In this document: piece by piece, positions 12,553 through 35,705 of the stretch
Layout of the letters: each line of letters opens with the position of its first letter
Position numbering within the stretch: the stretch's first letter is position 1
Assembly: GCA_964643655.1 (NCBI GenBank)
Contig: CAZXTJ010000001.1
Span: forward strand, 1-50,263
DNA from: an uncultured bacterium
Lineage (GTDB): Bacteria > Muiribacteriota > UBA6191 > CAZXTJ01
Length of the DNA stretch: 50,263 bases
Direction of reading: 5' to 3'
The notes under the pieces: model-generated
Seen by the model: only the letters and a program-made list of their open reading frames with translations
Database searches by the model: none
What the model was told of the DNA's origin: nothing
Made by a program: the position numbers and the translations under genes

Positions 12553-12981
12553 ATGAACAGGAACTGGTTAATCGGCGGATGTATTCTTGCACTGATAGCT
12601 GCCCCTAAATTCATGAAGATGGTAGCTCTTATCCTTTTGGTTACCCTGACGGTAGGAAACACCGGTTGCCTCGGCTTCCTCGCAGCCATTCTCGGAGCCA
12701 TTGTCAATGTAGTTGGCGGAATAGTCTCAACACTTGGTCCATTAATCATGGGCGGTATAAAATTAGCGACAGGTATTGTTGGAGCTGTTGCCGGTGCAAG
12801 TGGTAAAGAGACGCAAAATGTCGAGAGCAGAGCTGACACTGACACAGGCCAACAGAACAGAGTCAATTTGCAGAGTGGCGAAAAAGCCAATGTAAATAAT
12901 GAATCTCTTACGATGACTGAAGATGCTCGAACTGACAAGAAAAAGGTAGTTACTCAACTTGAGCCAGTACCTGCACAGTAG
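12553..12981 (+). CDS. Small glycine-zipper membrane protein with a polar C-terminal tail
   Basis: ATG at 12553 follows GGAGGG. Two hydrophobic stretches rich in GxxxG (GGIVSTLGPLIMGGIKLATGIVGAVAGASG). A Cys at LTVGNTGC is a possible weak lipobox. The 3' end overlaps the next gene by 23 nt. Confidence 0.55.
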   Translation: MNRNWLIGGCILALIAAPKFMKMVALILLVTLTVGNTGCLGFLAAILGAIVNVVGGIVSTLGPLIMGGIKLATGIVGAVAGASGKETQNVESRADTDTGQQNRVNLQSGEKANVNNESLTMTEDARTDKKKVVTQLEPVPAQ

Positions 12982-14746
12982 AATTAGTTCATCGGTCCAC
13001 ATCCGAAAAAGACGACACAACCATTCAGGTTTTGGAACACTGTTAATCCTTGTTCTTGCACTCTTGCTCTGTCTAGCCGTAATCGGCATGGGGCAAGGGT
13101 ATTTTTCTTCCTTCGTATCTGACCAAACGCACAAGAATTTGATGGGCGACATTGCCTACGAGTTGGCTGAAAATGCCATAGAAAGTGCCCATTATCTCGT
13201 TGGGAAAGGCGCAAACCATCCTAGTGGTGAGGCCAATCTATACAAACTCTTTCGCGAGAACCTGAGCGATTTCTCTGTCGATTTATCGGTTTCAATCCTG
13301 CCAGGCATAGCAACGGAGCTTGGCAAAAAAGGTTTGGAAAATTTCTCTTTAGTGGATGACAAAGTCCTTTTGGAAGTGCTTTTCCAGCATCCAATGTCTG
13401 TCATCAACCCTACGGAGCATGACCGTTTTGGTACTCTGCGGTTCTCTGCCAAGGGAAAATATGGCCCCAAAAACATCGTTCGTACTGTGAGTAAAACATA
13501 TGATTTCAGGCTCACTTCTATTACGACTCCACGCCCTTTTGACATGAATACGATGTTCATACATGATCCATCACCTTACCTTACCTACTTTGCCTACAAA
13601 GGAGATCCAAATCTCTACATAGATGCAGCCCATACAAAGATTGCCAACTATGAAAAGGCCACGCGTGACTTGAAAAAGTCTTATGAAGACTTTGTCAAAA
13701 AGATAAAAGGAAAACCAAAATCGGGTCCTGTCGTTCGACTTTTTGAGGGTTTGATTGCCGAAATGAATGTGTTGCTCGAACAGGAATGGCCGCCTGACGT
13801 TACAATTTCGCAATCCAATAAAACGAGAGACAAAGAGAACACTGTTCATCATTTTCCTGAACCAACTACCTATGCTCTGTGGACCAATGCAGAGAAGGTA
13901 GATTTTGGTGAGATCAATATTGCACCTCGTTTGAAAGTACGTCACCAAAGATTGGCTGAGATAGAGCCAGAACATCTGCAGGTGAACAATGACATCAAAG
14001 AGTTTTTGGACAGTACGCCGACAAAGTTCGAGCCTCTCGTGCCAATGCAGCGTCAGTGGAATGCTCTCGTTAAAGAGATTGTGTGGCTCTATTACGGTGT
14101 ACTCATCAAGGACTACAAGGTTTTTCAAGATAACTTCTATGAGTTGAATGAACCGCTGTTGAGCAGATTTAAACCTTTCATAAATTCAGTTTCTCTTGAT
14201 GAGCTCGTTAATCGTTGCTCTACCTACTTGGCTGAAGGGGATATTGGTAAGACTGGCGATGGAAGGACTCTCAACGAGAAGTTCAATGAGTTGCTCTCAC
14301 GAAATGAGTCTTTGAGTGGAATTCTGTACATACACAATCCCACAGAAGAGCTCATAATCAACCGCACTTTCAAGGGCAGGCTGGTAATCATCGTCCGTGA
14401 TGATGTGACAATTCAACAAGCATTAGTTGAGGATCAAGAACAGGATTTGCTGACAGTTGCCTCTTTTGGTCGAATGGCAGTAGAAGGCAAAACTCAAGCT
14501 TCATTGATTGCTGGCAGTACTCTTTCAACGGAACCTGAAGCGGACATTGCAGGCAACCTTTTCATTCACAAACTAGACATCGTAGGTGTGAGACCTGAAC
14601 GTTTACTCACAGGAACATTACAAAGAGATGAACGCCTTGTTGGTGGACCAAAACAGATTTCGAGGAAGGTGGAAGGTATCTTCCCCGATTACCAATATTT
14701 CACTGTTGGTCCTGAACCTGTTTTTATGTCTATTGAGAGGCGGTGA
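12959..14746 (+). CDS. Large pseudopilin-like protein lacking Glu+5 (GspK/PilX-like position), cassette A
   Basis: 595 aa. TTG start, with no in-frame ATG before the TM. The N-terminus is basic and then pilin-like hydrophobic (RRHNHSGFGTLLILVLALLLCLAVIG), without Glu at +5. Paralogous to 18149-19759 (TSITTPRPFDMNT vs LTTVPRPFDTYG; DLLTVASFG vs DLLTIVSYAG). Confidence 0.6.
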   Translation: MSQYLHSRISSSVHIRKRRHNHSGFGTLLILVLALLLCLAVIGMGQGYFSSFVSDQTHKNLMGDIAYELAENAIESAHYLVGKGANHPSGEANLYKLFRENLSDFSVDLSVSILPGIATELGKKGLENFSLVDDKVLLEVLFQHPMSVINPTEHDRFGTLRFSAKGKYGPKNIVRTVSKTYDFRLTSITTPRPFDMNTMFIHDPSPYLTYFAYKGDPNLYIDAAHTKIANYEKATRDLKKSYEDFVKKIKGKPKSGPVVRLFEGLIAEMNVLLEQEWPPDVTISQSNKTRDKENTVHHFPEPTTYALWTNAEKVDFGEINIAPRLKVRHQRLAEIEPEHLQVNNDIKEFLDSTPTKFEPLVPMQRQWNALVKEIVWLYYGVLIKDYKVFQDNFYELNEPLLSRFKPFINSVSLDELVNRCSTYLAEGDIGKTGDGRTLNEKFNELLSRNESLSGILYIHNPTEELIINRTFKGRLVIIVRDDVTIQQALVEDQEQDLLTVASFGRMAVEGKTQASLIAGSTLSTEPEADIAGNLFIHKLDIVGVRPERLLTGTLQRDERLVGGPKQISRKVEGIFPDYQYFTVGPEPVFMSIERR

Positions 14747-15288
14747 GTTTGATGAACAGAGGACATTCTTTTGTGGAAGTAATGATAGCTCTGCTCATCA
14801 TTGCCATTGCCCTCATTCCCATTTTGTCCATGTTCATGCATCAAACTCAGGTCGCTCATTTCAATAAATTTCAATTGATAGCGCGTTATCGAGCCAGGCA
14901 GGAAGCTGAAGCTCTCGCTACTCTCGATTATGTTGCCTTGCAGAAGTTGGCTGGTACTGTGGACTATCCCATTTCTCTAAGAGACGATGAAGGCGGATTA
15001 AAGGGCTTGCCTTTGTTGTATCCACCAGCCAAAGCAGAGTTGGCCGCAATGACGCCCGACGGAAAACTCACGCCTGAACTTGCTCATATGGCTGATACGC
15101 TTGGCCTTTTTTCAACGGCTGCCTTTTTTGAAGAGATAGATGCTGGCGGATTGGCTCGGATAGTCATCTACGTGTTATGGAAAATTCCTGGTGAACCACC
15201 TTCTCGTGCTCCACACATGATTCGCTATTTCAAGTTGGTATCACGAAGAGAGAATTCTCTGGACCAGCGACGGAGGATTGAGAGATGA
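14743..15288 (+). CDS. Prepilin-type N-terminal domain protein (minor pseudopilin), cassette A
   Basis: 181 aa. The leader MSLMNRG/HSFVEVMIALLIIAIAL has Gly-1 and Glu+5. 4-nt overlap with both neighbours. Confidence 0.8.
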   Translation: MSLMNRGHSFVEVMIALLIIAIALIPILSMFMHQTQVAHFNKFQLIARYRARQEAEALATLDYVALQKLAGTVDYPISLRDDEGGLKGLPLLYPPAKAELAAMTPDGKLTPELAHMADTLGLFSTAAFFEEIDAGGLARIVIYVLWKIPGEPPSRAPHMIRYFKLVSRRENSLDQRRRIER

Positions 15289-15950
15289 AGAAGGGATTCA
15301 CTCTCGTTGAAGTCATCATCGCCGTACTCGTTGCCAGTTTGGTGATTACGGGTTTGTGGTCCATGTTCATCATGAGTAAAAAGCAGCAACGTATGGCTGA
15401 TGTTACGCAGCAGGGACTAAAAGAATCACTACAGTTGGTTCAGCCTCTGGAACAGGATTTTCGCCGTTTGTACATGGATAAACATAGGCCTGTGAAAACC
15501 TTTGATGGTGGTGTTGAGTTTCACGTCTTTGATGGTGATTATTCTGATCTAACTCGAGGGATTATTCGGACAAAAAGAATAATCTATCGATTAGTAGCTG
15601 AAGATTTTGCCATCTATCGACAAGAGGGTGATACCAATGCTCGAAAGTTGCCAGGTACCTATGAAAAGCTCGATTTCAAGGTTGAACCAGTACACACTTA
15701 CTTAACCATGCCTCCTTATGTCGAAGGAGTGGACGAAGCCACTATGCGTCCCGGTGGTGTTCTCTCTTATATGGTAACCGCCATTCCCGTCGAGCTTACA
15801 GTAGCTGATAGAGAACGGTGGACTCCTCAGGATAGGACCATTCTCAAAGGCGCAGTACCTCTTACTCCACTGAATGGACAAAAACGGTATTTCTTCTGGA
15901 ACTCAAATCCGACGACAAGAGCTATTACTTCTGAGGCTGAGCTTCACTAG
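15285..15950 (+). CDS. Prepilin-type N-terminal domain protein (minor pseudopilin, GspJ/PilW-like size), cassette A
   Basis: 221 aa. The leader MKKG/FTLVEVIIAVLVASLVI has the canonical GFTLxE motif. Confidence 0.85.
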   Translation: MKKGFTLVEVIIAVLVASLVITGLWSMFIMSKKQQRMADVTQQGLKESLQLVQPLEQDFRRLYMDKHRPVKTFDGGVEFHVFDGDYSDLTRGIIRTKRIIYRLVAEDFAIYRQEGDTNARKLPGTYEKLDFKVEPVHTYLTMPPYVEGVDEATMRPGGVLSYMVTAIPVELTVADRERWTPQDRTILKGAVPLTPLNGQKRYFFWNSNPTTRAITSEAELH

Positions 15951-16614
15951 GTTCTTCTGGAGTTCGCAAACCATTCCAAGCCACGTCGAGGGCAATCAGC
16001 AAGACACCGCCATCGATGAAGATGTCTGCCAGATTAAAAATGGTCAGACTCTTGGTTTGCCAGCTCACTTCAAACATATCGATGACATAACCTAAAAAGA
16101 TTCTGTCTGTCATATTGGCCAAAGCCCCAGCTAGAACTAAGGCCAGACAGACTTGAGTCATCTTCTCTTCAGCTGTAACAAAGCGGTAATAGAAGAGCAC
16201 GACAAAGGTAGTCAATATTCCAGAAGTGATGAAGATGAATCTGTGGCCTGGTAACAAACCGAGGATTGCTCCAGGATTCTCAGCATATGTGAGCTGAAAG
16301 ATCTGAGGTAAGAGCTGCAGTTTGGGACCACCTTTGACAAGGCTGACAATGAGCCACTTGATGGCTTGGTCTGCTCCATAAGCAAAAAAGCCTGCAGAGA
16401 GTAGAAACTTAACTGGCAGCGAACATTCTTTCCTGATAAGGAAAGGACTCAATAGCGAAAGTAAAAGGCAGACAAACCACAGTATTCGATAGGCCACCAA
16501 ATGGCCGTCATATGACTGGGGATGGACAAATGAGGTCCAGAGTAGTGTGAGATAGCTAAAGGCAGCTAGAGCCCAGAGGAGCCAAGTAAATATCTTCAGA
16601 TTGGACTTTGTCAT
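15925..16614 (-). CDS. lspA: Lipoprotein signal peptidase (signal peptidase II)
   Basis: Conserved SPase II boxes ENPGAILGLLPG and GYVIDMF...FNLADIFIDGG, with 4 or more TM segments. I prefer the start at ATG 16614, because the track start at 16674 overlaps the divergent neighbour. The 3' end overlaps the convergent pseudopilin gene by 26 nt. Confidence 0.8.
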   Translation of the reverse strand: MTKSNLKIFTWLLWALAAFSYLTLLWTSFVHPQSYDGHLVAYRILWFVCLLLSLLSPFLIRKECSLPVKFLLSAGFFAYGADQAIKWLIVSLVKGGPKLQLLPQIFQLTYAENPGAILGLLPGHRFIFITSGILTTFVVLFYYRFVTAEEKMTQVCLALVLAGALANMTDRIFLGYVIDMFEVSWQTKSLTIFNLADIFIDGGVLLIALDVAWNGLRTPEEPSEAQPQK

Positions 16615-16663
16615 CAATTTTGATGATACCACTGACTGAGAAAAATGTTGAAAGCACTCTTCA

Positions 16664-17140
16664 TTGCAGACCATATTGGCTGAGGAAGGAAATCAATTGT
16701 CTCAACGTCGCTCAATATTAATCACACTGATTGCCCGAATAATCTTTTTCGGCGGTTTGGGGCTTGCTCTGATTGGCGCATTCTATTCCTTTTCTGATGG
16801 CCGCTGGCATCTCATGAGACAGCCGGTATACAAAGAGACCTTTAGAGTAGTCGTCTTTATCTTTGGTCTTGCAACGGCTTTTGTTGGTCACTTATTGGCA
16901 CGAAGGCGAGTCTTTGGTCTCGTATTCTTTCTTTTGGGTTGTGTTGTCATCGTTCTCCAGGACATTGGGACGGCAGCTCTCGGAGGGCCCGAAGCCTTCT
17001 GGTATGGTTATGTACCAGCTGTCGTGGATATAGCTGTTTTAGCCTATGTCTATCATCGTCGAGGTGAGTTCAAAGCACAACATCAACTGGAAAACATTCT
17101 CGTTGATACACTCAAATTGGCTGGCTCAGGCCAAGGATGA
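16664..17140 (+). CDS. Hypothetical 4-TM membrane protein
   Basis: 158-aa ORF with four hydrophobic helices (IIFFGGLGLALIGAFY, VVVFIFGLATAFVGHLL, VFGLVFFLLGCVVIVL, VPAVVDIAVLAYVY). The TTG start is uncertain. No recognisable motif. Confidence 0.5.
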   Translation: MQTILAEEGNQLSQRRSILITLIARIIFFGGLGLALIGAFYSFSDGRWHLMRQPVYKETFRVVVFIFGLATAFVGHLLARRRVFGLVFFLLGCVVIVLQDIGTAALGGPEAFWYGYVPAVVDIAVLAYVYHRRGEFKAQHQLENILVDTLKLAGSGQG

Positions 17141-17318: not shown

Positions 17319-18149
17319 ATGAAGAGGTCAACAAGAGGTCTTTTGGCAGCTTCCCTCTGCTTTTGTCTTGCCTATTCTGTTTCAGGCTGTGCCAATCCAC
17401 AGATGATGCAACAATTGACCCAGACCATCATTCAGTTGTCTGGTCTTGGTGGTGGTGGCGGAATGGGTAATGGTGGTGGTTTTTTACCACCAATAACCGG
17501 TGGTTCATCAGGACCAGGCCCGGCCAACCCAGGATTTCCTGGTGGACAATCCAAACCACCAACTCAGCCCTGGACCAATCAGCAGCAACCTCCTCTACCT
17601 ACCTCTGCACAGGAAGCCTTAAAGGAGTTGGCAACGAAATACGGAATAAAGCTAACTGGCCCTTATGGCGAGTACGATGTGAAAAATGCTCTCAACTGCG
17701 CTCGCCTCTATAAACCTGAGTTTACTCAACAGTTGACCATGCGCTATTCGGGAAGGAATTTTCACGGTGGTATAGCAGGTACCTGGGAGAATTATGGTGC
17801 TGGTGGATTCATTCAAATCTATGACAGCAAAGGACCATCCACGACTGCCCATGAAATGATGCACCACGTGGCCCTAGCCTCACGTAACAGACAAACGAGT
17901 ATGGCAAAAACAAATCAGATGATAGGTTCTTATCTGCCGGGGAGAAGGCCTCGTCGAGCAGCTCGTAACTTGATACCAACCAACTATGCCATGACAAATG
18001 CAGACGAATGGATTGCGGAAGCGTGTTCACTATATGCCATCAAAGTACGTAATTTGGATTGTCCTTACTGGCGGAATGCTGTCTTTAGTTCCTTCAATCC
18101 TCATCAGCCTTTTCGTGACGATATGAAATACCTCATGTCCGACAGTTGA
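17319..18149 (+). CDS. Lipoprotein with a zincin HExxH motif (ATLF/M34-like metallopeptidase candidate)
   Basis: 276 aa. Lipobox AYSVSGC, then a Gly/Pro-rich linker. TAHEMMHHV is HExxH. The downstream NADEWIAEACSLY resembles the EyFAEaF third-ligand helix of ATLF-like domains. The stop overlaps the start of the next gene. Confidence 0.55.
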   Translation: MKRSTRGLLAASLCFCLAYSVSGCANPQMMQQLTQTIIQLSGLGGGGGMGNGGGFLPPITGGSSGPGPANPGFPGGQSKPPTQPWTNQQQPPLPTSAQEALKELATKYGIKLTGPYGEYDVKNALNCARLYKPEFTQQLTMRYSGRNFHGGIAGTWENYGAGGFIQIYDSKGPSTTAHEMMHHVALASRNRQTSMAKTNQMIGSYLPGRRPRRAARNLIPTNYAMTNADEWIAEACSLYAIKVRNLDCPYWRNAVFSSFNPHQPFRDDMKYLMSDS

Positions 18150-19759
18150 TGAGTATTGGGAGCACAATGAAAATCGTCAAATGGCAAAAAGCAGGCTCTG
18201 GATTAATCGTAATGATGGTCCTTACAGTAGTCTTTTTGCTTGCTACGATAGTCCTCTATCAATCATCACACACCTCTGCAGTTACCCACGATACAGATAC
18301 TCTCCTTAGGGGAGATGTTCTGCAGAACCTTGTCAATTCGGCTGCAGAAGAGGCTGGAGCCAAGCTCGAGTATCTCTTCAATGAACCTAAATCTCCAGTT
18401 TTCTCCATGATTAGACAAGTCGTCTATAGGCCTGATGTTGGTGAATATGACTTCAGTGAATATGTCTCCACACCAGAGCTCACAGCGATTATCGCCTCCT
18501 CTGAATATGCCCAATACAAAGTCGAAGCTCCTGAAGTCAAAGTCGTTCTGCAGCGACAACTGGACAAGACTGAATATGAACGTTTTGGCATTGTCACCCT
18601 TCGTGTCACTGGCACTTCTGGAGGTATATTAGGGAGGCAGGTCAAACGTAGAATCGAGTTTGCCCGAGCCTTCAAAGTAGCTTTGACTACAGTCCCACGA
18701 CCCTTTGACACTTATGGCATCTATTACGCCAATGCAGAAGGAGTCACTGACACGAATTCAGTCAATGACTCTCGCCAGCGACTCATCAGTCTCAATGATG
18801 AGTTGTGGTCCTCATTAAAACGAGCCAAAGTGGAAAATGTGCTCGAAGAGGGGGCAGAAATGAAAGCCCTCGAAGGCCGTTTATTACCTCAAAACCAAGC
18901 ACGTGAGCGAGTCAACGAACTTGCGCAGCTCAAGGGCGGTGCTCTTTTAGGGCTTTATTACCCAGGTGTTTCACTGAAGCTGAATACTCTCGACTTGGCT
19001 GAGTATCTGAGAGCTTTGGTCTCTAAAGCTGAGAGAGCTTTAAGGCGAACAAAAACACTTACTCGGCAAGAAGAGTTTGTACCAGCTGCTTCAATGACAA
19101 ACGAGCTCGTTTACGAAGGTTTGTGGCGCATATGGGCTCATAAAGAAGCCTTTCGTTTAATCAAAACCAGTGACGAAGCTTATAATGCTCTGCAGCATTA
19201 TCATTTCAGCTTTGAAAAAGACTTCTGGCGTAAACGAATTCAATACAAAGTCGAGAAACGAGCCAACGAAGAGAGCTTCTCTGCGGCCTGGCAGAGATAC
19301 AGAAAAGACCATCCTACTCTTCGTGGTGTCATCTCAACAAACAATGATGTACCCCTTTATCTCACAGGTAAAATCACAGGTTCTGCCGTAATCGTCGTTG
19401 GACCTGGTGGAGCCATAATTCACGATTTGAACAAGAGTGGTGGTCCCAAGGATTTGCTGACGATAGTTTCTTATGCAGGACCAATACACATAAAAGGAGA
19501 GTGTCACTGTTCCCTTTTTCTTTGTAAACCCAACGGCGCTGAAAGGCCAGAAGTCAACATTCCCGCTGATGCTACGCTCTTGGGAAATTTAGTTTCCTGG
19601 AGTCCACCACTGGCAACATCTTTGCAAGGGATGATAAAAAGGGATATGAGATATGTCTCTGGATTTAATGGTGATAAAGGTCAAGTCGTCTTGAACAATC
19701 ATTTGTTACATGTGGCCTTTTCTCCAAAGACTATCTATAGGAAGGTGAAGAGGAATTGA
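18149..19759 (+). CDS. Large pseudopilin-like protein lacking Glu+5, cassette B (paralogue of 12959-14746)
   Basis: 536 aa from ATG 18149 (the track gives TTG 18146). N-terminus KWQKAGSGLIVMMVLTVVFLLATIVLY without Glu+5. Shares the TVPRPFD and DLLTIVSY motifs with the cassette A protein. Confidence 0.6.
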   Translation: MSIGSTMKIVKWQKAGSGLIVMMVLTVVFLLATIVLYQSSHTSAVTHDTDTLLRGDVLQNLVNSAAEEAGAKLEYLFNEPKSPVFSMIRQVVYRPDVGEYDFSEYVSTPELTAIIASSEYAQYKVEAPEVKVVLQRQLDKTEYERFGIVTLRVTGTSGGILGRQVKRRIEFARAFKVALTTVPRPFDTYGIYYANAEGVTDTNSVNDSRQRLISLNDELWSSLKRAKVENVLEEGAEMKALEGRLLPQNQARERVNELAQLKGGALLGLYYPGVSLKLNTLDLAEYLRALVSKAERALRRTKTLTRQEEFVPAASMTNELVYEGLWRIWAHKEAFRLIKTSDEAYNALQHYHFSFEKDFWRKRIQYKVEKRANEESFSAAWQRYRKDHPTLRGVISTNNDVPLYLTGKITGSAVIVVGPGGAIIHDLNKSGGPKDLLTIVSYAGPIHIKGECHCSLFLCKPNGAERPEVNIPADATLLGNLVSWSPPLATSLQGMIKRDMRYVSGFNGDKGQVVLNNHLLHVAFSPKTIYRKVKRN

Positions 19760-20175
19760 GGAGTAGAACCTCAGGTATAACAATCGTTGAAGTGCTCATT
19801 GCAGGTGTTATTTTTGCATTGGCTCTTTTTCCCATCTTCTCTCTTCATCAAGGACTCTTCAAACAAAGCTCACAAGCTAGCCATTTGCTCGATGCTCAGT
19901 GCCATTTGTTGGAAATGATGGGGACCATCGAGAGCAGGATGTATGCACAGAGATTTAAGATTGAAGAAGCACGAGCTTTGCAATCAACGAATAAAGTCCA
20001 TTGGGGTCAGCATGAGTTAGAAGTGGAAGAGACAATTTCTCAATACAGATCGAAGTTGACGACAGGAATCTGGCGCATAGATTGTGCCCTTCAGTGGCGG
20101 GAGTCACGTGGAAGCAAATCCATAAACCGTAAACTAGCCCTATCTCGTTTAGTGGCAGAACCAAGCGAAAGGTAG
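19756..20175 (+). CDS. Prepilin-type N-terminal domain protein (minor pseudopilin), cassette B
   Basis: 139 aa. TTG start overlapping the upstream stop. The leader MRSRTSG/ITIVEVLIAGVIFALAL has Glu+5. Confidence 0.75.
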   Translation: MRSRTSGITIVEVLIAGVIFALALFPIFSLHQGLFKQSSQASHLLDAQCHLLEMMGTIESRMYAQRFKIEEARALQSTNKVHWGQHELEVEETISQYRSKLTTGIWRIDCALQWRESRGSKSINRKLALSRLVAEPSER

Positions 20176-20178
20176 ACA

Positions 20179-20775
20179 ATGCGCCGAGGATTCACCTTGC
20201 TGGAAGTAATTGTCGCTTTTTTCCTCCTTTGTTCGCTTGTTGGACTGCTTTATTCGAGTTTTGCTACTGGCTGGCGTAGAAGTGATAAATTGTCTTTTCG
20301 TTTACAGGCTCTACAGGCGGCTTACATTGTGAGGACGGTCTTAGCAGCTGATTTGGCCAGTTATATACCTGGTCCCGTTGGACAAGAAGCTGTTTACGAC
20401 TCTCCCTCACTTGGATTTAAAATGGTGACTCCCGAAGACGGTGCTGGTATTGAAGGCACTTGCCTCGATGAGGATTTAAAACCCATTTCATTTCCCGTTA
20501 CTTACGAGTTCGACAAAACTACTCACAGAATATACAGAAACGGAAAACCCCTAGGCCAAATGCGATTTGCCAAAGCAGCGTTTTTTCACGAACCATATGA
20601 AGAAGGCTGCGAAAAAGGCGAAACTGTTGGTGTCCATCTTGTCATCGTGCCGGAAAGTAAGTTGGAAAATCCTGATAAAGAACAGAATAAAAAATTCGAG
20701 GTCAAGTTTACTTTTCATTGCCCACAAACTACGTTAGCGCGCGTCTATGATGATTGGTCAGTTTACACTTTTTGA
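20179..20775 (+). CDS. Prepilin-type N-terminal domain protein (minor pseudopilin), cassette B
   Basis: 198 aa. Leader MRRG/FTLLEVIVAFFLL. Confidence 0.85.
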   Translation: MRRGFTLLEVIVAFFLLCSLVGLLYSSFATGWRRSDKLSFRLQALQAAYIVRTVLAADLASYIPGPVGQEAVYDSPSLGFKMVTPEDGAGIEGTCLDEDLKPISFPVTYEFDKTTHRIYRNGKPLGQMRFAKAAFFHEPYEEGCEKGETVGVHLVIVPESKLENPDKEQNKKFEVKFTFHCPQTTLARVYDDWSVYTF

Positions 20776-28590: not shown

Positions 28591-30974
28591 AGTTACTCGT
28601 CGAGATTGACGGCAACAGAATTGTCAGGCAAATAGAACTGACCAAATCTCGTTACACCTTGGGCCGAGATGCTGAGTGTGACATTGTCTTTGAAACGGGC
28701 AAAGTTTCTCGTCAGCATGCTGAACTAGTTCTGCGTGGCGATGCTTATTCTATCAGCGATAACTCGTCGAGAAATCATGTCTATGTCAACGGAGAGCAAG
28801 TAAAAGAAAGAAGACTCACATCTGGAGATGTGATCAATATCTCCCGAAAGGTCTCTTTGCTTTTTATTGCCGAAAGCGACACGGGCAATGCAGTCAATCG
28901 TATGGTGGATAAGCTTTGGGACGTGGTCAATAAAAAGGACTTGTTACGCCTGAAAGAAGTTACAGGGCGTATCAGTGCTTTGGAGAAACTAGACACCATC
29001 CTCCATGTCGTCTTGCGTGAGGCAATCAGGTTTGTTGGTGCAGAACGAGGTTTCATCGCTTTGACTGACGCTTCGGGACAACTCAGTGCAAACGCCTTCG
29101 TTACACAGGCCATGCCTTTTGACGACGAACAGGGATTTCGTCAGTTTGTCTCCAGTTCTGCTGTAGAAAGAGTCATATCATCTCGTGAGCCAGTAATTAT
29201 CGAGAACACGAGTGACATAAGCGCAGAATCGGTAACCAGAAGTGTCCTGGAGTTGTCACTTGGTTCCATCCTCTGTTTTCCTCTGCTCTTCAATGATGTG
29301 TTGGTAGGTGTGTTGTATGTAGATTCACCACTGGCACTGAGTTTGGTTGCAGACATGGATCCTTTCTATTTCAGTATTCTGACTGACCAAGCTGCAATTG
29401 CCATCGAGAATGCGAAACTCTTCGAAAGACTGGAAGGAAAGGTTCAGGCAACTGAACATCGCTATCAGCAATTGGTTGACCTTTCGCCAGATGCAGTATT
29501 TTTGCAAGTAAATAAGAAGATAGTCTTTGCCAATCCTGCTGCCCTGCAGTTGTTGAAGGCTAACTCCATTTCTCAGGTAGTAGGTCTCGAGGTCGATAAG
29601 CTATTCGTTGGTGAAAATGCTGAAGAGGTCAATGCTTGCCTCGTGGGGCGGGCTGACTGCTCTTATTACACCTATTTGCAGCGTACGGATCAAAGTACAG
29701 TCGAAGTTGAGTTGTTATCCAAGGCGGTGGTTTTTAATGCTGAGCCTAGTGTGCTGATTATTGCACGTGACATCACGAGGCGACGTCTCATTGAGCGAGA
29801 GATGTTAAAAGCACAGAAATTGGATTCAATTTCCACTTTGGCTGGTGGATTGGCCCATGACTTCAATAACTTGCTCACGGCTGTAATGGGGAACATTGCC
29901 GTTGCTGCCTTGAAACTCAAAGAAGGTAAAGTCAAGGAGGTAGGTTCAATTCTTGGAAAATCTGAGCTAGCCTGTTTTCAAGCTCAAGATTTGACACACC
30001 AACTGCTTACCTTTGCTCGCGGTGGTGAACCCATTCGTGAAGCTGTTTCAATGAGGGATTTGCTAGAGGACACTATTCCATTCGTTCTTCGAGGAACGAA
30101 GGTAAAGTGTACTTTGGATTTACCCAAAGATCAGTTGGTAGCAGAAGTAGATAAAGGCCAATTAGTTCAGGTCCTCAACAACATAGCCATCAATGCCGTA
30201 CAAGCCATGCCTGTTGGTGGTAACTTCACAGTTACAGCGAAAAGCACCAAGGTCGCTGGCGACAATCCCTTGAGTTTGTCTGCCGGAGAGTATGTTCACA
30301 TTTCTCTAGCTGATGAAGGGGCAGGTATTCCCAAGCAGTTTCTTACCAAAATTTTCGATCCCTACTTTACGACGAAACAGCAAGGAAGCGGTTTGGGACT
30401 GGCCACTGCCTACTCCATCATGAAACGTCACGATGGTTCTGTCTCAGCAGAGTCTTCGGCCGATGGCACTACCTTTCATCTTTACCTACCTGCTTCCGAC
30501 GAGATAATCCCAGAGAAAAAGGAAGTTGCCGTTTCTTACTCTTTTGAAGGTGGGAGAGTCTTGGTAATGGATGATGAACCTTCTGTCATTGAGGTAGCTA
30601 CGGCGATGCTGACAGTAATGGGATTCCAAGTAGATCCTGCCGCTGATGGTGAAGAGGCATTGAAACGCTACAGGAAAGCCAAGGAAGAGGGAGAACCTTA
30701 TCTCGCCGTAATCATGGATTTGACCATTCCTGGTGGAATGGGCGGAGCAGAGACAATCAAAGAACTGCTCAAGTATGATCCGAAGGCCCGTGCCATTGTA
30801 TCTAGTGGTTATTCAAACGATGCAGTCATGGCCAACTACAAGAGTCACGGTTTTGTCGGTGTCATGGAGAAACCCTACAATCTTTCGCGTTTGACTGTCG
30901 TACTCCAAAGAGCCTTGAGTGAAGAAAAAAAAGAGCCTGCACTAGGTGCAGGCGATCTAATAAATAATGCCTAA
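28587..30974 (+). CDS. Hybrid sensor histidine kinase: FHA-GAF-PAS-HisKA-HATPase-receiver
   Basis: 795 aa. The ATG overlaps the upstream TGA (ATGA). FHA (LGRDAECDIVF, SRQH). GAF (ERGFIALTD...VLYVDSP). PAS-like segment. H-box GGLAHDFNNLL. G-boxes DEGAGIP and GSGLGLA. Receiver (VLVMDDEP...VIMDLTIPG). Confidence 0.9.
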   Translation: MKLLVEIDGNRIVRQIELTKSRYTLGRDAECDIVFETGKVSRQHAELVLRGDAYSISDNSSRNHVYVNGEQVKERRLTSGDVINISRKVSLLFIAESDTGNAVNRMVDKLWDVVNKKDLLRLKEVTGRISALEKLDTILHVVLREAIRFVGAERGFIALTDASGQLSANAFVTQAMPFDDEQGFRQFVSSSAVERVISSREPVIIENTSDISAESVTRSVLELSLGSILCFPLLFNDVLVGVLYVDSPLALSLVADMDPFYFSILTDQAAIAIENAKLFERLEGKVQATEHRYQQLVDLSPDAVFLQVNKKIVFANPAALQLLKANSISQVVGLEVDKLFVGENAEEVNACLVGRADCSYYTYLQRTDQSTVEVELLSKAVVFNAEPSVLIIARDITRRRLIEREMLKAQKLDSISTLAGGLAHDFNNLLTAVMGNIAVAALKLKEGKVKEVGSILGKSELACFQAQDLTHQLLTFARGGEPIREAVSMRDLLEDTIPFVLRGTKVKCTLDLPKDQLVAEVDKGQLVQVLNNIAINAVQAMPVGGNFTVTAKSTKVAGDNPLSLSAGEYVHISLADEGAGIPKQFLTKIFDPYFTTKQQGSGLGLATAYSIMKRHDGSVSAESSADGTTFHLYLPASDEIIPEKKEVAVSYSFEGGRVLVMDDEPSVIEVATAMLTVMGFQVDPAADGEEALKRYRKAKEEGEPYLAVIMDLTIPGGMGGAETIKELLKYDPKARAIVSSGYSNDAVMANYKSHGFVGVMEKPYNLSRLTVVLQRALSEEKKEPALGAGDLINNA

Positions 30975-31170
30975 TAGGCGGTGGGTTGCGTTCGATTAAC
31001 ACAATGAAAATTTTGTGCCATTTTTTACATACACTATTCATCAGGGTTTACACGTCTGGGGAATAACATATGCCACAAAATAGGGCATGGGGTGTTACAC
31101 AACGGTGCAACAGGACATCAGACTCGTAGTAAAGTTGAAGCAACAGTAAAAACTCAAAAATGGAGTGAAC

Positions 31171-32379
31171 ATGTCAATGTTAGAGAGCTTGCCCATATTC
31201 AAGGGCTTGAACGAAACAACCTTGGGCAAAATTGATGATGCCTTGGACACTCGAACTTACGGGGACAATGTCGTCCTCTTCAATCAAGGTGATCCATCAG
31301 ATGCCTTTTATATCATTCAATCAGGTGGAGTTCGTGTTGTTTGTCAAACAGCCGGCGCTGAAAGAGAATTGGCTGTTTTAGGTGAAGGCGACTTTTTTGG
31401 TGAAATGGGTGTCATTGACAATGCCGCCCGTTCAGCAGCGTGCATAACTCAGGGTGATACAACATTGCTGGTCATTGAAAAAGACAACTTCTTACGAATG
31501 ATGGCCACCAATCCATCCATTTCTCGCCATGTCATGTCGGCTGTTGTCAAACGTACACAAGGTGGTTTGGCTGGTGTTCCTTCAGGGAGCGCACCTGATA
31601 AAGGTACCATTGTCGGTCTCTTTTCTGCCTCTGGTGGTGTGGGTACGACCTTCATTGCAGCTAACGTTGCTGGTGCCCTCAAAGCGTTAACAGGGAAGAA
31701 GATTCTCGTTGTTGATTTGGATTTGATGTTTGGTGATCAGGGAGTGATGTTTGATATAAAACCTGAACGCTCCATAGAGGATTTTGTTGGAGATCCCGAA
31801 GTTGACGAAGAGAAGCTACTGAAGACTGTAATGTCCACCAAGTCAGGCGTTTCTCTTCTGCAAGCACCTTCTCGTCCTGAAACAGCTGAAGCCCTCGAAG
31901 GTGGAATAATCATCACCATATTGGAGATGCTTCGTAACCATTTTGATTACATCATTTGTGACACCGCCCATGTCGTACAGGAATTCAATATCCATGTACT
32001 GGAACTCGTGCAGATACCAATCTATGTACTCACTCCAGACTTTTTCGGCTTGAAGAACTGCTCACGTTGGTACGATTTGATGAAAAAGATCCGTTTCCCT
32101 GTTAGTCGCATTGAGTTCCTCATTAATAAAGTGGAAGAAGAGGCTGATGATCACAGTGTGGAGTGGTTGGAAGAGAGATTTAATAAAAAACCAATCTCGC
32201 TTATTCCTTTTGACATGAAATGTGCAAAAGAATCCATCGATCATGGCGAACTCGTTGTCATAGATAGCCCTGATAGTGAGCTTTCAAATGGGCTAGAGCG
32301 GGTGGCCTGCGCCATTGCTGGAATTGAAGTACCAGAGGAAGAAGAGGATTCTTGGTGGAGCAAGTGGATACCACTATAG
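31171..32379 (+). CDS. Cyclic-nucleotide-binding domain fused to a TadZ/CpaE/ParA-like P-loop domain
   Basis: cNMP domain (FKGL...GDFFGEMGVIDNAARSAA). The MinD/ParA-like fold reads VGLFSASGGVGTTFIAANVA...ILVVDLDLMFGD, and the Walker A has no lysine. ATG 31171 follows GGAG (the track gives GTG 31165). Confidence 0.75.
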   Translation: MSMLESLPIFKGLNETTLGKIDDALDTRTYGDNVVLFNQGDPSDAFYIIQSGGVRVVCQTAGAERELAVLGEGDFFGEMGVIDNAARSAACITQGDTTLLVIEKDNFLRMMATNPSISRHVMSAVVKRTQGGLAGVPSGSAPDKGTIVGLFSASGGVGTTFIAANVAGALKALTGKKILVVDLDLMFGDQGVMFDIKPERSIEDFVGDPEVDEEKLLKTVMSTKSGVSLLQAPSRPETAEALEGGIIITILEMLRNHFDYIICDTAHVVQEFNIHVLELVQIPIYVLTPDFFGLKNCSRWYDLMKKIRFPVSRIEFLINKVEEEADDHSVEWLEERFNKKPISLIPFDMKCAKESIDHGELVVIDSPDSELSNGLERVACAIAGIEVPEEEEDSWWSKWIPL

Positions 32380-32874
32380 TCACTGCTTAGATGTTAGCTC
32401 GCCATAAAGTCCAGATAGCCAATTGCTTAACTGAGAGAGTTTACTTGCTTCTTGCACACGTACTCTTCTCTTTCTGGAGGCAACTTTTACACCCTTTTTG
32501 CCTAAATATGAGCGTAAAATAGCCTTTAGCTGGGCATCTGTGGCTGGTTTTTTACACGATGACTTCAATTTAGCCACCATTCGCTCGAGTTGTTCCTCGT
32601 TTATCTGCCTATTTCTGCGAATTTGTCTCGATTTTTGGGGTTTGTGTTGGTTTAGCCCTGCAGGATCGAAGATCCGATCATAACGATGCTCTACGTTCTT
32701 AACAGCTTTACGAAGTTCTCTCTGCAGGGCAGAGACCTTTTTCTTCTCAGCTTTGTCACCTTCTTTGGGTGTAATGCTGTTGATGAGATTGTCTAAAAAG
32801 CCCAAATCAGTTTGTGCAACACATTGTGCAGGCCAAATGGTTAGAAGCAGAGAAAAAGCAAGCAATCGCAACAT
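32380..32874 (-). CDS. Small basic secreted protein of unknown function
   Basis: I prefer ATG 32874, which has GGGGG 6 nt upstream. It gives the signal peptide MLRLLAFSLLLTIWPAQCVA/Q followed by a Lys/Arg-rich 140 aa. The alternative start at 33006 abuts the upstream stop but adds a Cys/Phe-rich 44 aa. That extension spans a hairpin and a sigma-54-like site. Confidence 0.55.
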   Translation of the reverse strand: MLRLLAFSLLLTIWPAQCVAQTDLGFLDNLINSITPKEGDKAEKKKVSALQRELRKAVKNVEHRYDRIFDPAGLNQHKPQKSRQIRRNRQINEEQLERMVAKLKSSCKKPATDAQLKAILRSYLGKKGVKVASRKRRVRVQEASKLSQLSNWLSGLYGELTSKQ

Positions 32875-32909
32875 AAAAAGCCCCCTATTGTTTGAACTGC
32901 TCATAAGCA

Positions 32910-32925
32910 AGCAATAAGGTTGCCG
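32910..32925 (-). promoter_or_regulatory. Sigma-54 (-24/-12) promoter candidate for 32380-32874
   Basis: The minus strand reads CGGCAACCTTATTGCT. GG-N10-GC spacing is exact and the -12 TTGCT is perfect. The -24 reads cGGCAa. The -12 C lies 36 nt upstream of ATG 32874. Confidence 0.45.
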
Positions 32926-32943
32926 TCCCTGAAAAAGCCTAAA

Positions 32944-32973
32944 ACAGAGACATTTCTTGAAAAACGTCTCTGT
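32944..32973 (-). terminator. Hairpin with T-rich tail downstream of the GspE-like ATPase gene
   Basis: ACAGAGAC-N14-GTCTCTGT is a perfect 8-bp stem. On the minus strand it is followed by TTTAGGCTTTTTC. It starts 34 nt after the stop at 33007. The loop is long for an intrinsic terminator. Confidence 0.4.
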
Positions 32974-33006
32974 TTTATAGTTTTCCGCAGCAGCGGAATG
33001 CTCCAT

Positions 33007-34554
33007 TTATTGAGGAGGCATGAGGTATGAAGACAAAGAACGAACGATTTCGCCAGGTGATGTCAAACCGGAAGAGAGTAATCTCAAGCCGTCTTGCCAA
33101 TAGGTTTTGAAACCATCTTCCTTGGCAGCTTCCATGAGAGCTTCATAACAAGCTTCTTTGGTCAGCTGTTTGGCCAATTTACCCGTCATTGGTAAAAACT
33201 CGTGAACAGCAACCCTTCCTTTGAAACCACCAGAACATTTGTCACAGCCCATTGGTAGATAAAGCTCTTCAGCTTTGAGTTCACATTCACTCTCGAGTAG
33301 TTCCTGAGCCATTTCTAAATCTGCATGTTCAGACAATTCACTCATGGCTTTTCTGCAATGTAGGCAGAGTTTACGCACTAGACGCTGCCCAATTATGGCC
33401 TGTAAACCATCTGCCAATACAGGAGCTTTGAGACCAACTTCCAGCAGACGTAACAAAGAACCAATGGCATCTTTGCCATGTATAGAAGTGAATACTTTGT
33501 GGCCTGCCAAGGCAGATTGTAAAAGGATCTCCGCTGTCTCAAAATCTCGTATCTCGCCAGCGCAAATGACATCTGGATCAGAACGAAGAGCCGCCGAGAG
33601 ACCTTTACGAAAGGTTAGACCAATGGAGATGTTCACAGGCAATTGTTGAATTCCAGGAAGGCACAACTCAACGGGATCTTCGATGGAGAAAACTTTCTTT
33701 TCAGGTGCTGAAGTCTCTGCCAAAAGGGAGTACAAAGTGGTGGTTTTCCCAGAACCTGTCGGTCCTGAGACGACGACCATTCCGTGAGGATGGTGGGCAA
33801 TTCTTTTTACTGACTGCAGCACTTCATCACTCTGGAAGATGACGTCCAAAGAAGGAATGTCTGCCAAAGTCCATCTTGGGAGCAGTCTTATCGTTGCTGA
33901 TTCACCAGTCATCAAGGGCACTACGCAGAGGCGCATTGTCAATGGGCCACCTTCGGGAGTGAGCCTTGCTCGTCCATCTTGGGGAAGTCTGTGTTCAGCA
34001 GGATCACATTTGAACATGTATTTGGCTGCAGCCAACAGTTGCTGCAGCTCATCCTTTGATAGCTCTTGATGATGGGTGAGCAATCCATCAACACGAAATC
34101 GAATGGCCCCTCCATCAAGGGTCGAGTCGAAATGGATGTCACTTGCTCCTTTTTCTGCACCGAGTAAACACAGTTTCACAAGCCAAGCCAGTCCACTGGG
34201 TTCGAAAGAAAGAGCAGTAGATTTTCCTTTGTTCTCATTGGGTTCGAGCAGTCCTTCAGACACTCTGTCTGCTATCTGAGGTAAGAGTACGTCGAGATTT
34301 CCTTGTCGTTCTCCTGCTGCAATCATTTCTATTGTCAGTGGATTGAAAAGAGTGTCATGTTTGGCCAAGAGAGCGGATAGATTTTGTCCCTCTCTCAGTC
34401 CTTCAGAGAGCAATGCTGGAATTTCTGTATAGGGTTCAACAAGAGGATCTTGTGCGAAACTATCGAGGGCGTCAGCCAAGGGTACGCCAGCACCTATGAG
34501 GGCCCCCAGTTTTTTGAAGAACATTGAAACGGTCTTTCTGTTGGACATTTCCAT
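33007..34554 (-). CDS. GspE/PilB-family secretion ATPase with an N-terminal GspF/PilC-like cytoplasmic domain
   Basis: 515 aa. Residues ~10-95 (FFKKLGALIGAGVPLADALDSF...GQNLSALLAKHDTLFNPLTIEMIAAGERQGNLDVLLPQIADRV) fit the T2SS-F domain pattern. The core shows GASDIHF, LPQDGR, Walker A SGPTGSGKTTT, Asp box SIEDPVE, Walker B DPDVICAGEIRD, His box TSIHG, and tetracysteine CLHC...CDKC. Confidence 0.85.
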   Translation of the reverse strand: MEMSNRKTVSMFFKKLGALIGAGVPLADALDSFAQDPLVEPYTEIPALLSEGLREGQNLSALLAKHDTLFNPLTIEMIAAGERQGNLDVLLPQIADRVSEGLLEPNENKGKSTALSFEPSGLAWLVKLCLLGAEKGASDIHFDSTLDGGAIRFRVDGLLTHHQELSKDELQQLLAAAKYMFKCDPAEHRLPQDGRARLTPEGGPLTMRLCVVPLMTGESATIRLLPRWTLADIPSLDVIFQSDEVLQSVKRIAHHPHGMVVVSGPTGSGKTTTLYSLLAETSAPEKKVFSIEDPVELCLPGIQQLPVNISIGLTFRKGLSAALRSDPDVICAGEIRDFETAEILLQSALAGHKVFTSIHGKDAIGSLLRLLEVGLKAPVLADGLQAIIGQRLVRKLCLHCRKAMSELSEHADLEMAQELLESECELKAEELYLPMGCDKCSGGFKGRVAVHEFLPMTGKLAKQLTKEACYEALMEAAKEDGFKTYWQDGLRLLSSGLTSPGEIVRSLSSYLMPPQ

Positions 34555-34575
34555 GCCTATTTCCTTTCTGCAAAA

Positions 34576-35022
34576 CTACTTCATAGAGTGAACACAGGCG
34601 GCGAGGGCCCTTCGTCTCGCCTGTGCTTCTTCCTCTTCAATCCACTTCAGCAAACTCTCGCGCCTTATACGCATGTGTTCACCAAAATAGAAAAAAGGTA
34701 ACTGCTGACTCATCTCATAAACAGTAGCCACTGGAAGCTTGAGAAAGGTGGCTACATCTTCTGGGGTGAGAATGTCGTCTGCAGGCAATGTGTTGCCATA
34801 GATATTTGAATGAATCTTGTTCAGAACGTTAGAGAGCACTTCAGTGGAGGTATTCTCAGTCTTCCACTCATCTATCACTTCGTCCAGTTTTTCTAGTTGT
34901 GCACAACAATAGCTACAGTCAGCGCATGTCTCTAAATGCGAACGGAGGGAAAGACTCTCTTGGTCATCGAGCTCAGCTGCTAAAAATGCTGAAAGCTTGT
35001 CTTGCACTTCTTTGCAGTTCAC
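34576..35022 (-). CDS. Anti-sigma factor (zf-HC2) fused to an excisionase/MerR-type HTH, with no TM segment
   Basis: 148 aa. N-terminal CKEVQDKLSAFL...HLETCADC is Hx3Cx2C. The C-terminal LTPEDVATFLKLPVATVYEMSQQLPFFYFGEHMRIRRESLLKWIE fits the HTH_17 pattern. 1-nt overlap with the ECF sigma gene. Confidence 0.7.
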   Translation of the reverse strand: MNCKEVQDKLSAFLAAELDDQESLSLRSHLETCADCSYCCAQLEKLDEVIDEWKTENTSTEVLSNVLNKIHSNIYGNTLPADDILTPEDVATFLKLPVATVYEMSQQLPFFYFGEHMRIRRESLLKWIEEEEAQARRRALAACVHSMK

Positions 35023-35606
35023 TATTTCTGTCCTTTCGCTATGGTGGAAGAGTTGTTTCCCAGAAAATCACTCAAGCTGCGTGCGAGCTGTGCACGTGCG
35101 CGATGTAGATGTGTTTTGACGGTGCCCAAAGGTAACTCGAGAGCAGCTGCAATCTCTTCGTAGGAAAGCTCCTCCACCTGTCGTAAGACAAAAACAGCTC
35201 GCTGCTTATTCGGTAGAGTCTTCATTGCTTTGTTCAGGGCAACTTTGCCCTCTGCCAATTCCAGAACACTAGCAGGGCAGCCGCTTCTTGATTTGTTCTC
35301 TGTACTGCCTTTGATTACACGCAGATGAGGATGTCGCTTTTTCCTGTCGAGGGCATTCAAGCAAGTGTTGGTAGCAACCCTATACAACCAAGTAGAGAAT
35401 TTGGCTGTCGCTTTGTAATTTGGAGCTGCTTTGGCCACACGTATGAAAATCTCTTGGACCAGATCTTCAACTTCCACTTCTTGGCCTGCCGTCATTTTTC
35501 TTACATAACCAAAGAGTCTATTGGCATGGCGGTGGTATAACTCGTCAAAGGCGTCACGTCGCCCACGGCCAAAAAGAAGCATTAGTTGTTCATCAGAGAA
35601 GACCAT
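35022..35606 (-). CDS. ECF-type RNA polymerase sigma factor
   Basis: 194 aa. Region 2 (DAFDELYHRHANRLFGYV...DLVQEIFIRV...FSTWLYRVATN). Region 4 (LPNKQRAVFVLRQVEELSYEEIAAALELPLGTVKTHLHRAR). Confidence 0.9.
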   Translation of the reverse strand: MVFSDEQLMLLFGRGRRDAFDELYHRHANRLFGYVRKMTAGQEVEVEDLVQEIFIRVAKAAPNYKATAKFSTWLYRVATNTCLNALDRKKRHPHLRVIKGSTENKSRSGCPASVLELAEGKVALNKAMKTLPNKQRAVFVLRQVEELSYEEIAAALELPLGTVKTHLHRARAQLARSLSDFLGNNSSTIAKGQK

Positions 35607-35705
35607 TTGTCACCTTCCTGTACCATTGAACCAAGAAAGATGACTTTTGTTTCAAATTATTTTCTCTCTAGACACAATTTGTTTCCAGAAGTACTCTCGT
35701 AACTG

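Follow-up and report, generated by a model that had tools for sequence, protein, structure and literature searches.

In the type II secretion system (T2SS), the tip complex consists of GspK, GspI and GspJ (with GspH), as exemplified by the GspIJK ternary complex of enterotoxigenic Escherichia coli (ETEC), and the genes follow the order H-I-J-K. How the assembly ATPase (GspE/PilB) is coupled to the platform protein (GspF/PilC) is a central open question for all type IV filament (T4F) machines. In the PulE6:PulF3 model, six cytoplasmic (Cyto) platform domains are each bound to one N2 domain of the ATPase (PMC10790770). Among type IVa pili (T4aP), Myxococcus xanthus encodes three minor-pilin/PilY1 clusters for one machine (PMC7541494), and cyanobacteria possess a pair of priming sets whose PilX proteins are large (PilX-PilV-PilW-FimT, HpsA-like large PilX) (bioRxiv 10.64898/2026.02.12.705559). 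Here, we analyze a stretch of 50,263 nucleotides from an uncultured bacterium of the Muiribacteriota (GenBank assembly GCA_964643655.1, contig CAZXTJ010000001.1, positions 1 to 50,263), referred to as the window throughout, which encodes two pseudopilin triads and a GspE/PilB-class ATPase carrying a fused GspF/PilC-type domain.

Six pilin-type genes and an assembly ATPase within 23 kb are not a chance pattern. An earlier note on this DNA had tentatively assigned the two triads, the lipoprotein signal peptidase LspA encoded between them, the fused ATPase and a TadZ-like scaffold to one dispersed filament machine. The triads and the fused ATPase are genuine T4F-type parts, which are rare and keep their order in a related lineage (lineage B below), but the core of a filament machine is absent from the window and the modules occur separately in relatives. 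Our preferred reading, which we hold with evenly balanced confidence, is that the region comprises separable T4F modules that are probably accessory to core genes elsewhere, and not one demonstrable machine. The most economical account is that of two accessory priming/tip cassettes and a specialized motor controlled by an extracytoplasmic function (ECF) sigma factor, all of which would depend on core genes elsewhere. Should the parts prove to form one machine, it would define a T4F class of its own; otherwise, an unsampled lineage has here contributed accessory modules of an unusual kind.

Two Pseudopilin Triads in a Non-canonical Region

Every sizeable open reading frame (ORF) of the window was scanned against Pfam and/or NCBIfam. 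Gene packing is tight. From the strands of the genes and the gaps between them, nine transcription units were delineated in the interval from 11.7 to 35.7 kb. The two triads, the intervening lspA and the fused ATPase gene are all located where the earlier note had placed them. As that note had also stated, the 50-kb window contains no contiguous gsp/pil/tad operon (Pfam/NCBIfam and a six-frame profile scan), Hanks kinases, an FHA hybrid kinase, creBC and an ECF sigma/anti-sigma pair are interleaved with the filament-type genes, and the composition of the region is non-canonical.

Each triad encodes a large pilin-like protein followed by two small pseudopilins. The large protein of triad 1, K1 (12959-14746, plus strand, 595 aa), has an N-terminal hydrophobic helix and no Glu5, and is the proposed tip/cap subunit of this triad. 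It is followed on the same strand by I1 (14743-15288, 181 aa; signal G/HSFVE, with the slash marking the cleavage site; N_methyl score of 22.3 bits against a cut-off of 21.2) and J1 (15285-15950, 221 aa; G/FTLVE; N_methyl 27 bits), the latter with weak N-terminal matches to GspJ and ComGF. Triad 2, also on the plus strand, comprises the large pilin-like K2 (18146-19759, 537 aa), again lacking Glu5, I2 (19756-20175, 139 aa; G/ITIVE), which has no Pfam match and was found by a motif scan, and J2 (20179-20775, 198 aa; G/FTLLE; N_methyl 23.4 bits). All four small triad proteins thus carry a G/xxxxE class-III signal, and three of them score above the Pfam N_methyl gathering threshold. K1 and K2 are distantly related paralogues that share 25% identity across some 200 aa (E-value 6e-10). 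The small proteins resemble each other in their N-terminal helices only, with the N-terminus of I2 being 42% identical to that of I1. Genes inside the cassettes overlap by 4 nt. The first cassette (unit 2, plus strand) consists of a small membrane protein gene, K1, I1 and J1 with overlaps of 23, 4 and 4 nt, and the second (unit 5, plus strand) of lipoMP, K2, I2 and J2 with two 4-nt overlaps and a 3-nt gap before J2.

K1 has no match in Pfam, NCBIfam or the PDB. An AlphaFold2 (AF2) model of its residues 1-205 (mean predicted local distance difference test score, pLDDT, of 74.6) contains a 60-residue alpha1 helix (residues 24-84) followed by a beta-sheet, a predicted topology that appears pilin-like. 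A Foldseek search of this model against the PDB returned nothing below an E-value of 0.1, the best pilin match having an E-value of 1.0. The AF2 model of full-length K1 is poor (pLDDT 52.6) and its Foldseek matches are meaningless. Sequence and profile searches of the PDB with the K, I and J proteins retrieved pilin N-terminal helices only, and beyond this helix no triad protein matched the GspH/I/J/K, PilV/W/X, ComG or Hps families or any solved structure.

A six-frame motif scan revealed no further ORF with a class-III signal in the window. Because this signal is confined to the four small triad ORFs, no major pilin is encoded there. Likewise, a GspF/PilC profile run against the six-frame translation of the window had the N-terminal domain of the ATPase as its sole match, and no platform gene was found. 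Since the window encodes four proteins with class-III signals and no prepilin peptidase, the latter is needed from outside. By comparison with GspK-I-J and the minor-pilin/PilY1 sets, each cassette would form an alternative priming/tip complex that nucleates and caps a filament. To build such a filament, the organism would have to encode a major pilin, a polytopic platform, a prepilin peptidase and probably a secretin outside the window. Because every core part is absent from it, the window cannot encode a self-contained filament system.

An Assembly ATPase Fused to a Platform-Type Domain

The ATPase gene (33007-34554, minus strand) matches T2SSE over residues 134-504 (E-value 5e-92) and T2SSF over residues 12-100 (E-value 4.6e-12). 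The core (residues 134-504; 33043-34155, minus strand) comprises the N2 and C-terminal domains of the GspE/PilB class and, among proteins of solved structure, is closest to Thermus PilF, Vibrio cholerae EpsE and M. xanthus PilB. Walker A and B, the Asp box and the His box are complete (GPTGSGKTTT, IEDPVE, DPDV..GEIRD) and a tetracysteine site is present (C397/C400/C437/C440); judged from these motifs, the ATPase is likely to be catalytically intact. The N-terminal domain (residues 7-100; 34255-34536, minus strand) is a soluble helical domain of the GspF/PilC cytoplasmic type. Its PDB matches are the cytoplasmic domains of PilC, EpsF and GspF, and hhalign against a profile of 30 GspF/PilC members aligned it to Cyto1 with a probability of 99.3% (E-value 8e-21). 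The fusion protein contains no hydrophobic segment. The N1E/T2SSE_N domain (PF05157), through which GspE binds GspL and which all other close homologues carry, is missing and the T2SSF-type domain is found in its place.

This architecture is rare. Only four fusion clusters were found among the top matches of a word-indexed search of 5.8 billion sequences, and in an exhaustive phmmer search of 1.84 billion representatives two proteins (P0003 and P0004) were the only fusions in the best 150 of 9,214 matches to the N-terminal domain. A scan of GTDB genomes with the N-terminal alignment of the fusion gave no match, a scan of JGI metagenomes gave a single generic GspE-like locus, and an exact-sequence look-up of the window ATPase gave no record. 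In the literature, we found no description of a GspF-domain/ATPase fusion.

The fusion would supply one platform Cyto-type domain per ATPase N2 domain. This stoichiometry suggests that the Cyto-like domain docks on N2, either in cis or in trans, or that it packs heteromerically with a real platform. If the fused domain packs against N2 or against such a platform, the motor might dock without GspL/PilM-type adaptors, or it might be gated. The fusion tethers a Cyto domain before N2, and since the PulE6:PulF3 model predicts contact between exactly these two domains (PMC10790770), it is a ready-made construct for structural and biochemical interface tests.

Module Boundaries in Related Lineages

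Related contigs come from PRJEB15404, a study of plastic biofilms in a hypersaline lagoon, and from other metagenomes. We distinguish lineage A (the organism of the window), B (loci L001 and L010), C (L007), D (L009), E (L013) and F (L018). A profile search of 5.8 billion protein clusters revealed only four K-like clusters. K1 has counterparts in lineages A (ENA ERZ1644706 and ERZ925706; about 100% identity, GC content 46%), B (ENA ERZ925711; 79% identity, GC 46-47%), D (JGI 3300005077, L009; 53% identity, GC 64%) and E (Logan SRR30574980, L013; 25% identity, GC 71%). The large-small-small order is kept in lineages D and E. The distant triad of lineage E has class-III signals and is followed by an unrelated NMO gene; a fragment upstream of it was considered as lipoMP-like and gave no BLASTP alignment. 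In lineage D, I1 and J1 are 62 and 57% identical to the window proteins, respectively, and K2, I2 and J2 of L001 are 53, 76 and 83% identical.

Locus L009 keeps the whole block of p203, small membrane protein, K1, I1, J1, lspA (on the opposite strand) and mem158. The block is flanked differently there, by an NTP_transf_5 gene at one end and by CdiI and a PI3/PI4-kinase-like gene at the other. Neither triad 2 nor the ATPase is found in the 11 kb of this locus. Because the block is intact between different flanks without triad 2 or the ATPase, triad 1 forms an autonomous module to which lspA is truly linked. Taken together, the related contigs split the region into three units, namely the triad-1 block, the ECF sigma/anti-sigma/ATPase genes, and the gene of the cNMP-binding ParA/MinD-class protein (cNMP-ParA; cNMP, cyclic nucleotide monophosphate) that the earlier note had called a TadZ-like scaffold. 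The region after the triad-1 block of L009 (7942-11447), with the PI3/PI4-kinase-like gene and a CdiI immunity/CDI-toxin-like pair, is absent from the window. A 186-aa ORF of L009 that was considered as GspG-like has no Pfam support.

Lineage B retains the arrangement of genes between triad 2 and the ATPase despite saturated synonymous sites. The synteny between lineages A and B spans the whole 35 kb, however, and includes housekeeping and unrelated genes (TtuA-like, p215, p255, p553, sigma-54 activators), and is not specific to the filament parts. Co-occurrence across relatives, as the earlier note would expect of a single machine, is found in part: the K-like and fusion-ATPase families are both present in ENA ERZ925711, ENA ERZ1644706 and JGI 3300005077 (lineages B, A and D, respectively) and occur in the same few uncultured lineages, but cNMP-ParA mostly occurs away from T4F genes.

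All genes compared are under purifying selection (pN/pS of 0.13-0.45, with saturated synonymous sites). This bears on the view that the region holds decaying, non-functional remnants of a former T2SS/T4P locus that was broken by the insertion of signaling genes. The core genes are absent from the window and at least one window gene (glgC) has an in-frame stop, as would be expected of decay, yet all T4F-type ORFs are intact, they retain 52-85% aa identity at saturated synonymous sites with pN/pS values of 0.13-0.37, their conservation persists although the GC content rises from 46% to 64-71%, and the ATPase motifs are invariant. We regard decay as very improbable.

Genes Accompanying the Triads

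The first gene of the triad-1 operon encodes a small Gly-rich membrane protein (12535-12981, plus strand) and overlaps K1 by 23 nt. It has no family match and is 50% identical in L009 and 74% identical in L010; an internal lipoprotein-like signal (MK...NTGC) is conserved and may represent the true start. Divergent from this operon lies p203 (11723-12334, minus strand; unit 1), which encodes a lipoprotein (lipobox LFSGC) containing a poly-Gly stretch and a region rich in Pro and Thr. L009 has a homologue at the corresponding place (43% identity over 148 aa, E-value 8e-29). The triad-2 operon starts with another lipoprotein gene, lipoMP (17319-18149, plus strand; lipobox VSGC), which overlaps K2 by 4 nt. 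The lipoMP protein also contains a poly-Gly/Pro linker and a zincin-like motif (HEMMHH…E), and matches no protease family, Pfam entry or PDB structure.

LspA, lipoprotein signal peptidase II (15925-16674, minus strand), is encoded convergently with J1 as a single-gene unit (unit 3). It matches Peptidase_A8 (PF01252, E-value 8e-33) and TIGR00077 (81.5 bits against a cut-off of 73.95), has an N-terminal extension of about 90 aa, and shows the motifs NPGA, VIDMF and FNLAD. In L009, lspA lies beside triad 1 in the same position and on the same strand. LspA processes lipoproteins and not prepilins. The proposed role of LspA as a filament part is not supported. The block contains two or three lipoprotein genes, which account better for its linkage to triad 1, and the simplest reason for the linkage would be that LspA matures these lipoproteins. 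We found no link between pseudopilins and LspA in the literature.

Next to lspA, mem158 (16664-17140, plus strand; unit 4) encodes a membrane protein with about four hydrophobic helices, which has no family match and is 46-47% identical in L009. It was considered as the membrane remnant of a split platform and rejected, as hhalign against the GspF/PilC profile gave a probability of 0.3%.

The cNMP-Binding ParA/MinD-Class Protein

The cNMP-ParA gene (31165-32379, plus strand; unit 8) encodes a cNMP_binding domain (E-value 2e-23) and a ParA/MinD-class domain, an architecture found in about 29 clusters. Its Walker A motif is degenerate (SGGVGTT) and has lost both lysines. Within the family, distant members still have KGGVGKS, whereas the motif has degraded to SGGVGTT or TGGVGNS in the near members, which are probably pseudo-ATPases. 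The description as a TadZ-like scaffold with a cNMP sensor holds in that a cNMP-binding ParA/MinD-class protein is present, but the TadZ label rests only on the degenerate Walker A and on a JGI 'CpaE' annotation of homologues. With the NCBIfam model CpaE_hom, the protein reaches 21 bits where the cut-off is 154, and it also stays far under the MinD cut-off.

The gene adjoins the ATPase gene only in the close lineages A, B and C, and there as a separate, convergent transcription unit. No T4F gene was found within the contig or within 10 kb in ten other contexts of the family (25-65% identity). In lineage F (65% identity), the order is FHA-HK, ParA and, in convergent orientation, p208 and MgtE, and nine window genes (33007-42315) are missing, including the ATPase operon. 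The ParA neighbors in L014, L015 and L019 (57% identity) are MarR, an oxidase, an alkaline phosphatase and a kinase, L016 (39% identity) has no T4F neighbors, and four GTDB loci from Chloroflexota and Riflebacteria metagenome-assembled genomes (25-32% full-length identity) have no T4F ATPase within 10 kb. The steadier neighbors of cNMP-ParA are signaling genes. Because T4F neighbors are confined to lineages A, B and C, filament membership of cNMP-ParA is not supported, contrary to the earlier proposal; it may instead be a signaling or positioning neighbor.

With this, the view of a self-contained dispersed machine can be judged. It would consist of the triads, LspA, the fusion ATPase and cNMP-ParA, with the cytoplasmic half of the platform residing in the ATPase and unrelated small membrane proteins serving as the membrane part. 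In its favor, the parts are found within 23 kb of each other in both A and B, the ATPase and ParA genes are neighbors in these two lineages and in C, the presence of a single Cyto-like domain for each N2 equals the 6:6 pairing of the PulE6:PulF3 model, and small membrane proteins are conserved beside the triads. Against it stand four class-III-signal proteins in a window with neither a major pilin nor a prepilin peptidase, a mem158 unlike GspF/PilC, a ParA family unlinked to T4F genes in ten other contexts, an LspA whose enzymology does not extend to prepilins, and a triad-1 block that is autonomous in L009, all of which leave this view improbable. Its boldest form is a machine of new design, in which a hexameric motor with Cyto domains in cis mimics the six of the PulF trimer, small membrane proteins or lipoproteins provide the membrane part, two alternative three-protein tips are controlled by an ECF factor and cyclic nucleotides, and no conventional platform is used; this we consider quite improbable.

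The ECF Operon and Its Regulation

The ATPase gene belongs to an operon (unit 9, minus strand) of ECF sigma factor, anti-sigma factor, ATPase and p208, with gaps of -1, 21 and 0 nt. The first gene encodes the ECF sigma factor (35022-35606, minus strand), and the second (34576-35022, minus strand) an anti-sigma factor with a zf-HC2 domain and a C-terminal HTH_17. This fusion of zf-HC2 to an excisionase-type HTH_17 DNA-binding domain, with no membrane segment, is an unusual soluble architecture. The last gene, p208 (32380-33006, minus strand), encodes a very basic secreted protein (signal peptide) that is 42% identical in L001 and 34% in L018. In lineages A, B and C, the ECF sigma, anti-sigma and ATPase genes follow one another in the same order with little space between them, lineage C being represented by L007 (NCBI GCA_029935755.1, 48% identity).

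Upstream of this operon lies an ECF-type promoter-like motif, TGAAAC-N17-GTTCAA (35626-35654, minus strand), which is the sole copy in the window (0.04 expected) and is conserved before the ECF gene in L001 (lineage B). A different element marks the divergent promoter region between p203 and triad 1, where two TGCCATG boxes 16 nt apart are followed by a T-run (12334-12363). This pair is also the sole window copy (0.00 expected) and is conserved in L010 (lineage B) and L009 (lineage D) across GC contents of 46 and 64%. The boxes are probably a transcription-factor site, for which they are the candidate sequence. A search for sigma-54 promoters gave 44 matches against 32.6 expected, none of them convincing upstream of the cassettes.

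A rival view is that the modules are unrelated neighbors, in which the cassettes serve a canonical T2SS/T4P elsewhere that has its own ATPase, the fusion ATPase acts separately (e.g., as an ECF-induced decoy or regulator titrating or blocking a platform, or in a different process), and ParA is purely a signaling protein. In its favor, triad 1 occurs without the ATPase in L009 and ParA with p208 occurs without it in L018, the transcription units are separate and 12 kb apart, no ECF-type promoter motif is shared, and the synteny in lineage B takes in housekeeping genes. On the other hand, both families are limited to the same handful of lineages among billions of proteins, the fusion ATPase retains every catalytic motif of an assembly motor, and no conventional GspE/PilB of these lineages was encountered, though no search aimed at one could be made. 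We consider this view unlikely, and prefer accessory cassettes and an ECF-controlled motor that may serve them.

Several observations weigh against the preferred reading as well. A major pilin, a Peptidase_A24 prepilin peptidase, a polytopic T2SSF protein, a secretin and PilMNO/GspLM are all missing from the 50-kb window (Pfam, NCBIfam). Hidden Markov model (HMM) and fold searches assign none of the six pilin-like proteins to a known minor-pilin family by its globular part, and each set has three pilin-like proteins instead of four plus PilY1. The ECF operon and the cassettes share no promoter motif, with no relaxed copy upstream of the cassettes or ParA. Separate contigs carry the ATPase and the triad-1 block in lineage D. 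Moreover, the co-occurrence of two clade-specific families can be explained by shared ancestry alone.

Signaling Neighbors and Other Window Genes

The genes between triad 2 and cNMP-ParA (20776-30974, including an APH-like gene) provide context, and a role in the filament is not supported for them. Unit 6 (minus strand) comprises creB, creC, the APH-like gene and a Hanks kinase. The kinase (Pkinase, Pfam; 20776-21702, minus strand) lies next to triad 2, and CreC and CreB (22701-24958, minus strand) score 561 and 331.6 bits against NCBIfam equivalog cut-offs of 356 and 273, respectively. Unit 7 (plus strand) encodes a Hanks kinase-STAND-TPR protein (Pkinase-STAND-TPR, 25078-28590) and an FHA-GAF-PAS-HK-REC hybrid kinase (28587-30974). 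Both are missing between creB and ParA in lineage B, and an orthologue of the FHA-HK protein (62% identity) precedes ParA in L018. Since lineage B lacks 25078-30974 and L018 lacks 33007-42315, large indels have reshaped this neighborhood.

Upstream of the triads, the region 61-11715 is a dense signaling region with an ankyrin-repeat Hanks kinase, a secreted VWA protein, a second Hanks kinase, two tandem FHA-GAF sigma-54 activators that are 48% identical to each other, and a metallo-beta-lactamase-fold protein. The sigma-54 activators and the metallo-beta-lactamase-fold gene are conserved beside triad 1 in lineage B. At the other end of the window, glgC (ADP-glucose pyrophosphorylase; 47820-49166, minus strand) contains an in-frame TAA at 48555-48557 (…FAEKPSKE*SISRF…), which yields ORFs of 203 and 238 aa in the same frame and points to a pseudogene or a sequencing error.

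Comparison With Known Systems

The cNMP-ParA protein resembles TadZ/CpaE in its ParA/MinD-class fold, degenerate Walker A and N-terminal sensor-type domain, but it has a cNMP-binding domain in place of the receiver-like one, and the nearby ATPase is of the GspE/PilB and not the TadA class. The TadA-family model scores 34.6 bits on the fusion ATPase, against a cut-off of 373. The window pseudopilins are of the N_methyl type and no tad genes are present in the window. Models of the Com system remain below their cut-offs too (ComGA 222 bits against 300; ComGE/ComGF 17-25 bits against 49-80), and neither ComGB nor ComC was found in the window.

Like GspE, PilB and PilF, the fusion ATPase has an N2 and a C-terminal domain, the full set of catalytic motifs and a tetracysteine zinc site. 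It differs in having a Cyto-type domain where these have N1E/T2SSE_N (MshEN), and in sharing its operon with an ECF sigma/anti-sigma pair. Both the T2SS GspE model (TIGR02533, 332 bits against a cut-off of 630) and the T4aP PilB model (TIGR02538, 309 bits against 676) remain well below threshold. From the side of the platform, the N-terminal domain is homologous to the Cyto1/Cyto2 helical domain of GspF/PilC (PulF; PMC10790770), but the fusion has a single Cyto domain, no transmembrane segments, and is joined to the motor.

As in the T2SS tip complex, each triad combines one large protein without Glu5 with two small Glu5-containing class-III pseudopilins, encoded by adjacent and translationally coupled genes. 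Unlike in the T2SS, the order is large-small-small and the first gene of each cassette encodes a lipoprotein or a small membrane protein. The window contains no GspH, GspG or gsp operon, and Pfam and NCBIfam revealed no T2SS GspD, GspF, GspG, GspC/L/M or GspO. The GspJ model scores 18.6 bits against a cut-off of 64.85, and the triad proteins have no T2SSK, T2SSI or T2SSJ match in Pfam.

The T4aP core genes (PilA, PilC, PilD, PilMNOPQ, PilT) are likewise absent from the window, PilV scores reach 18-20 bits against a cut-off of 52, and no triad protein matches the PilX_N, PilW, PilY1 or HpsA families. A beta-rich C-terminal half of K1 is seen in a low-confidence model only. The sets also differ in their size, with three pilin-like proteins compared to four plus PilY1 in T4aP priming sets. 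In their organization, however, the two cassettes are like the priming sets of M. xanthus and cyanobacteria, in that they are paralogous, lie away from core genes, can stand alone and include a large subunit that is a candidate for capping. As pseudopilin cassettes of three proteins each, the triads constitute a family of novel sequence that is accompanied by lipoproteins and has lspA as a conserved neighbor, which widens the known range of priming/tip complexes.

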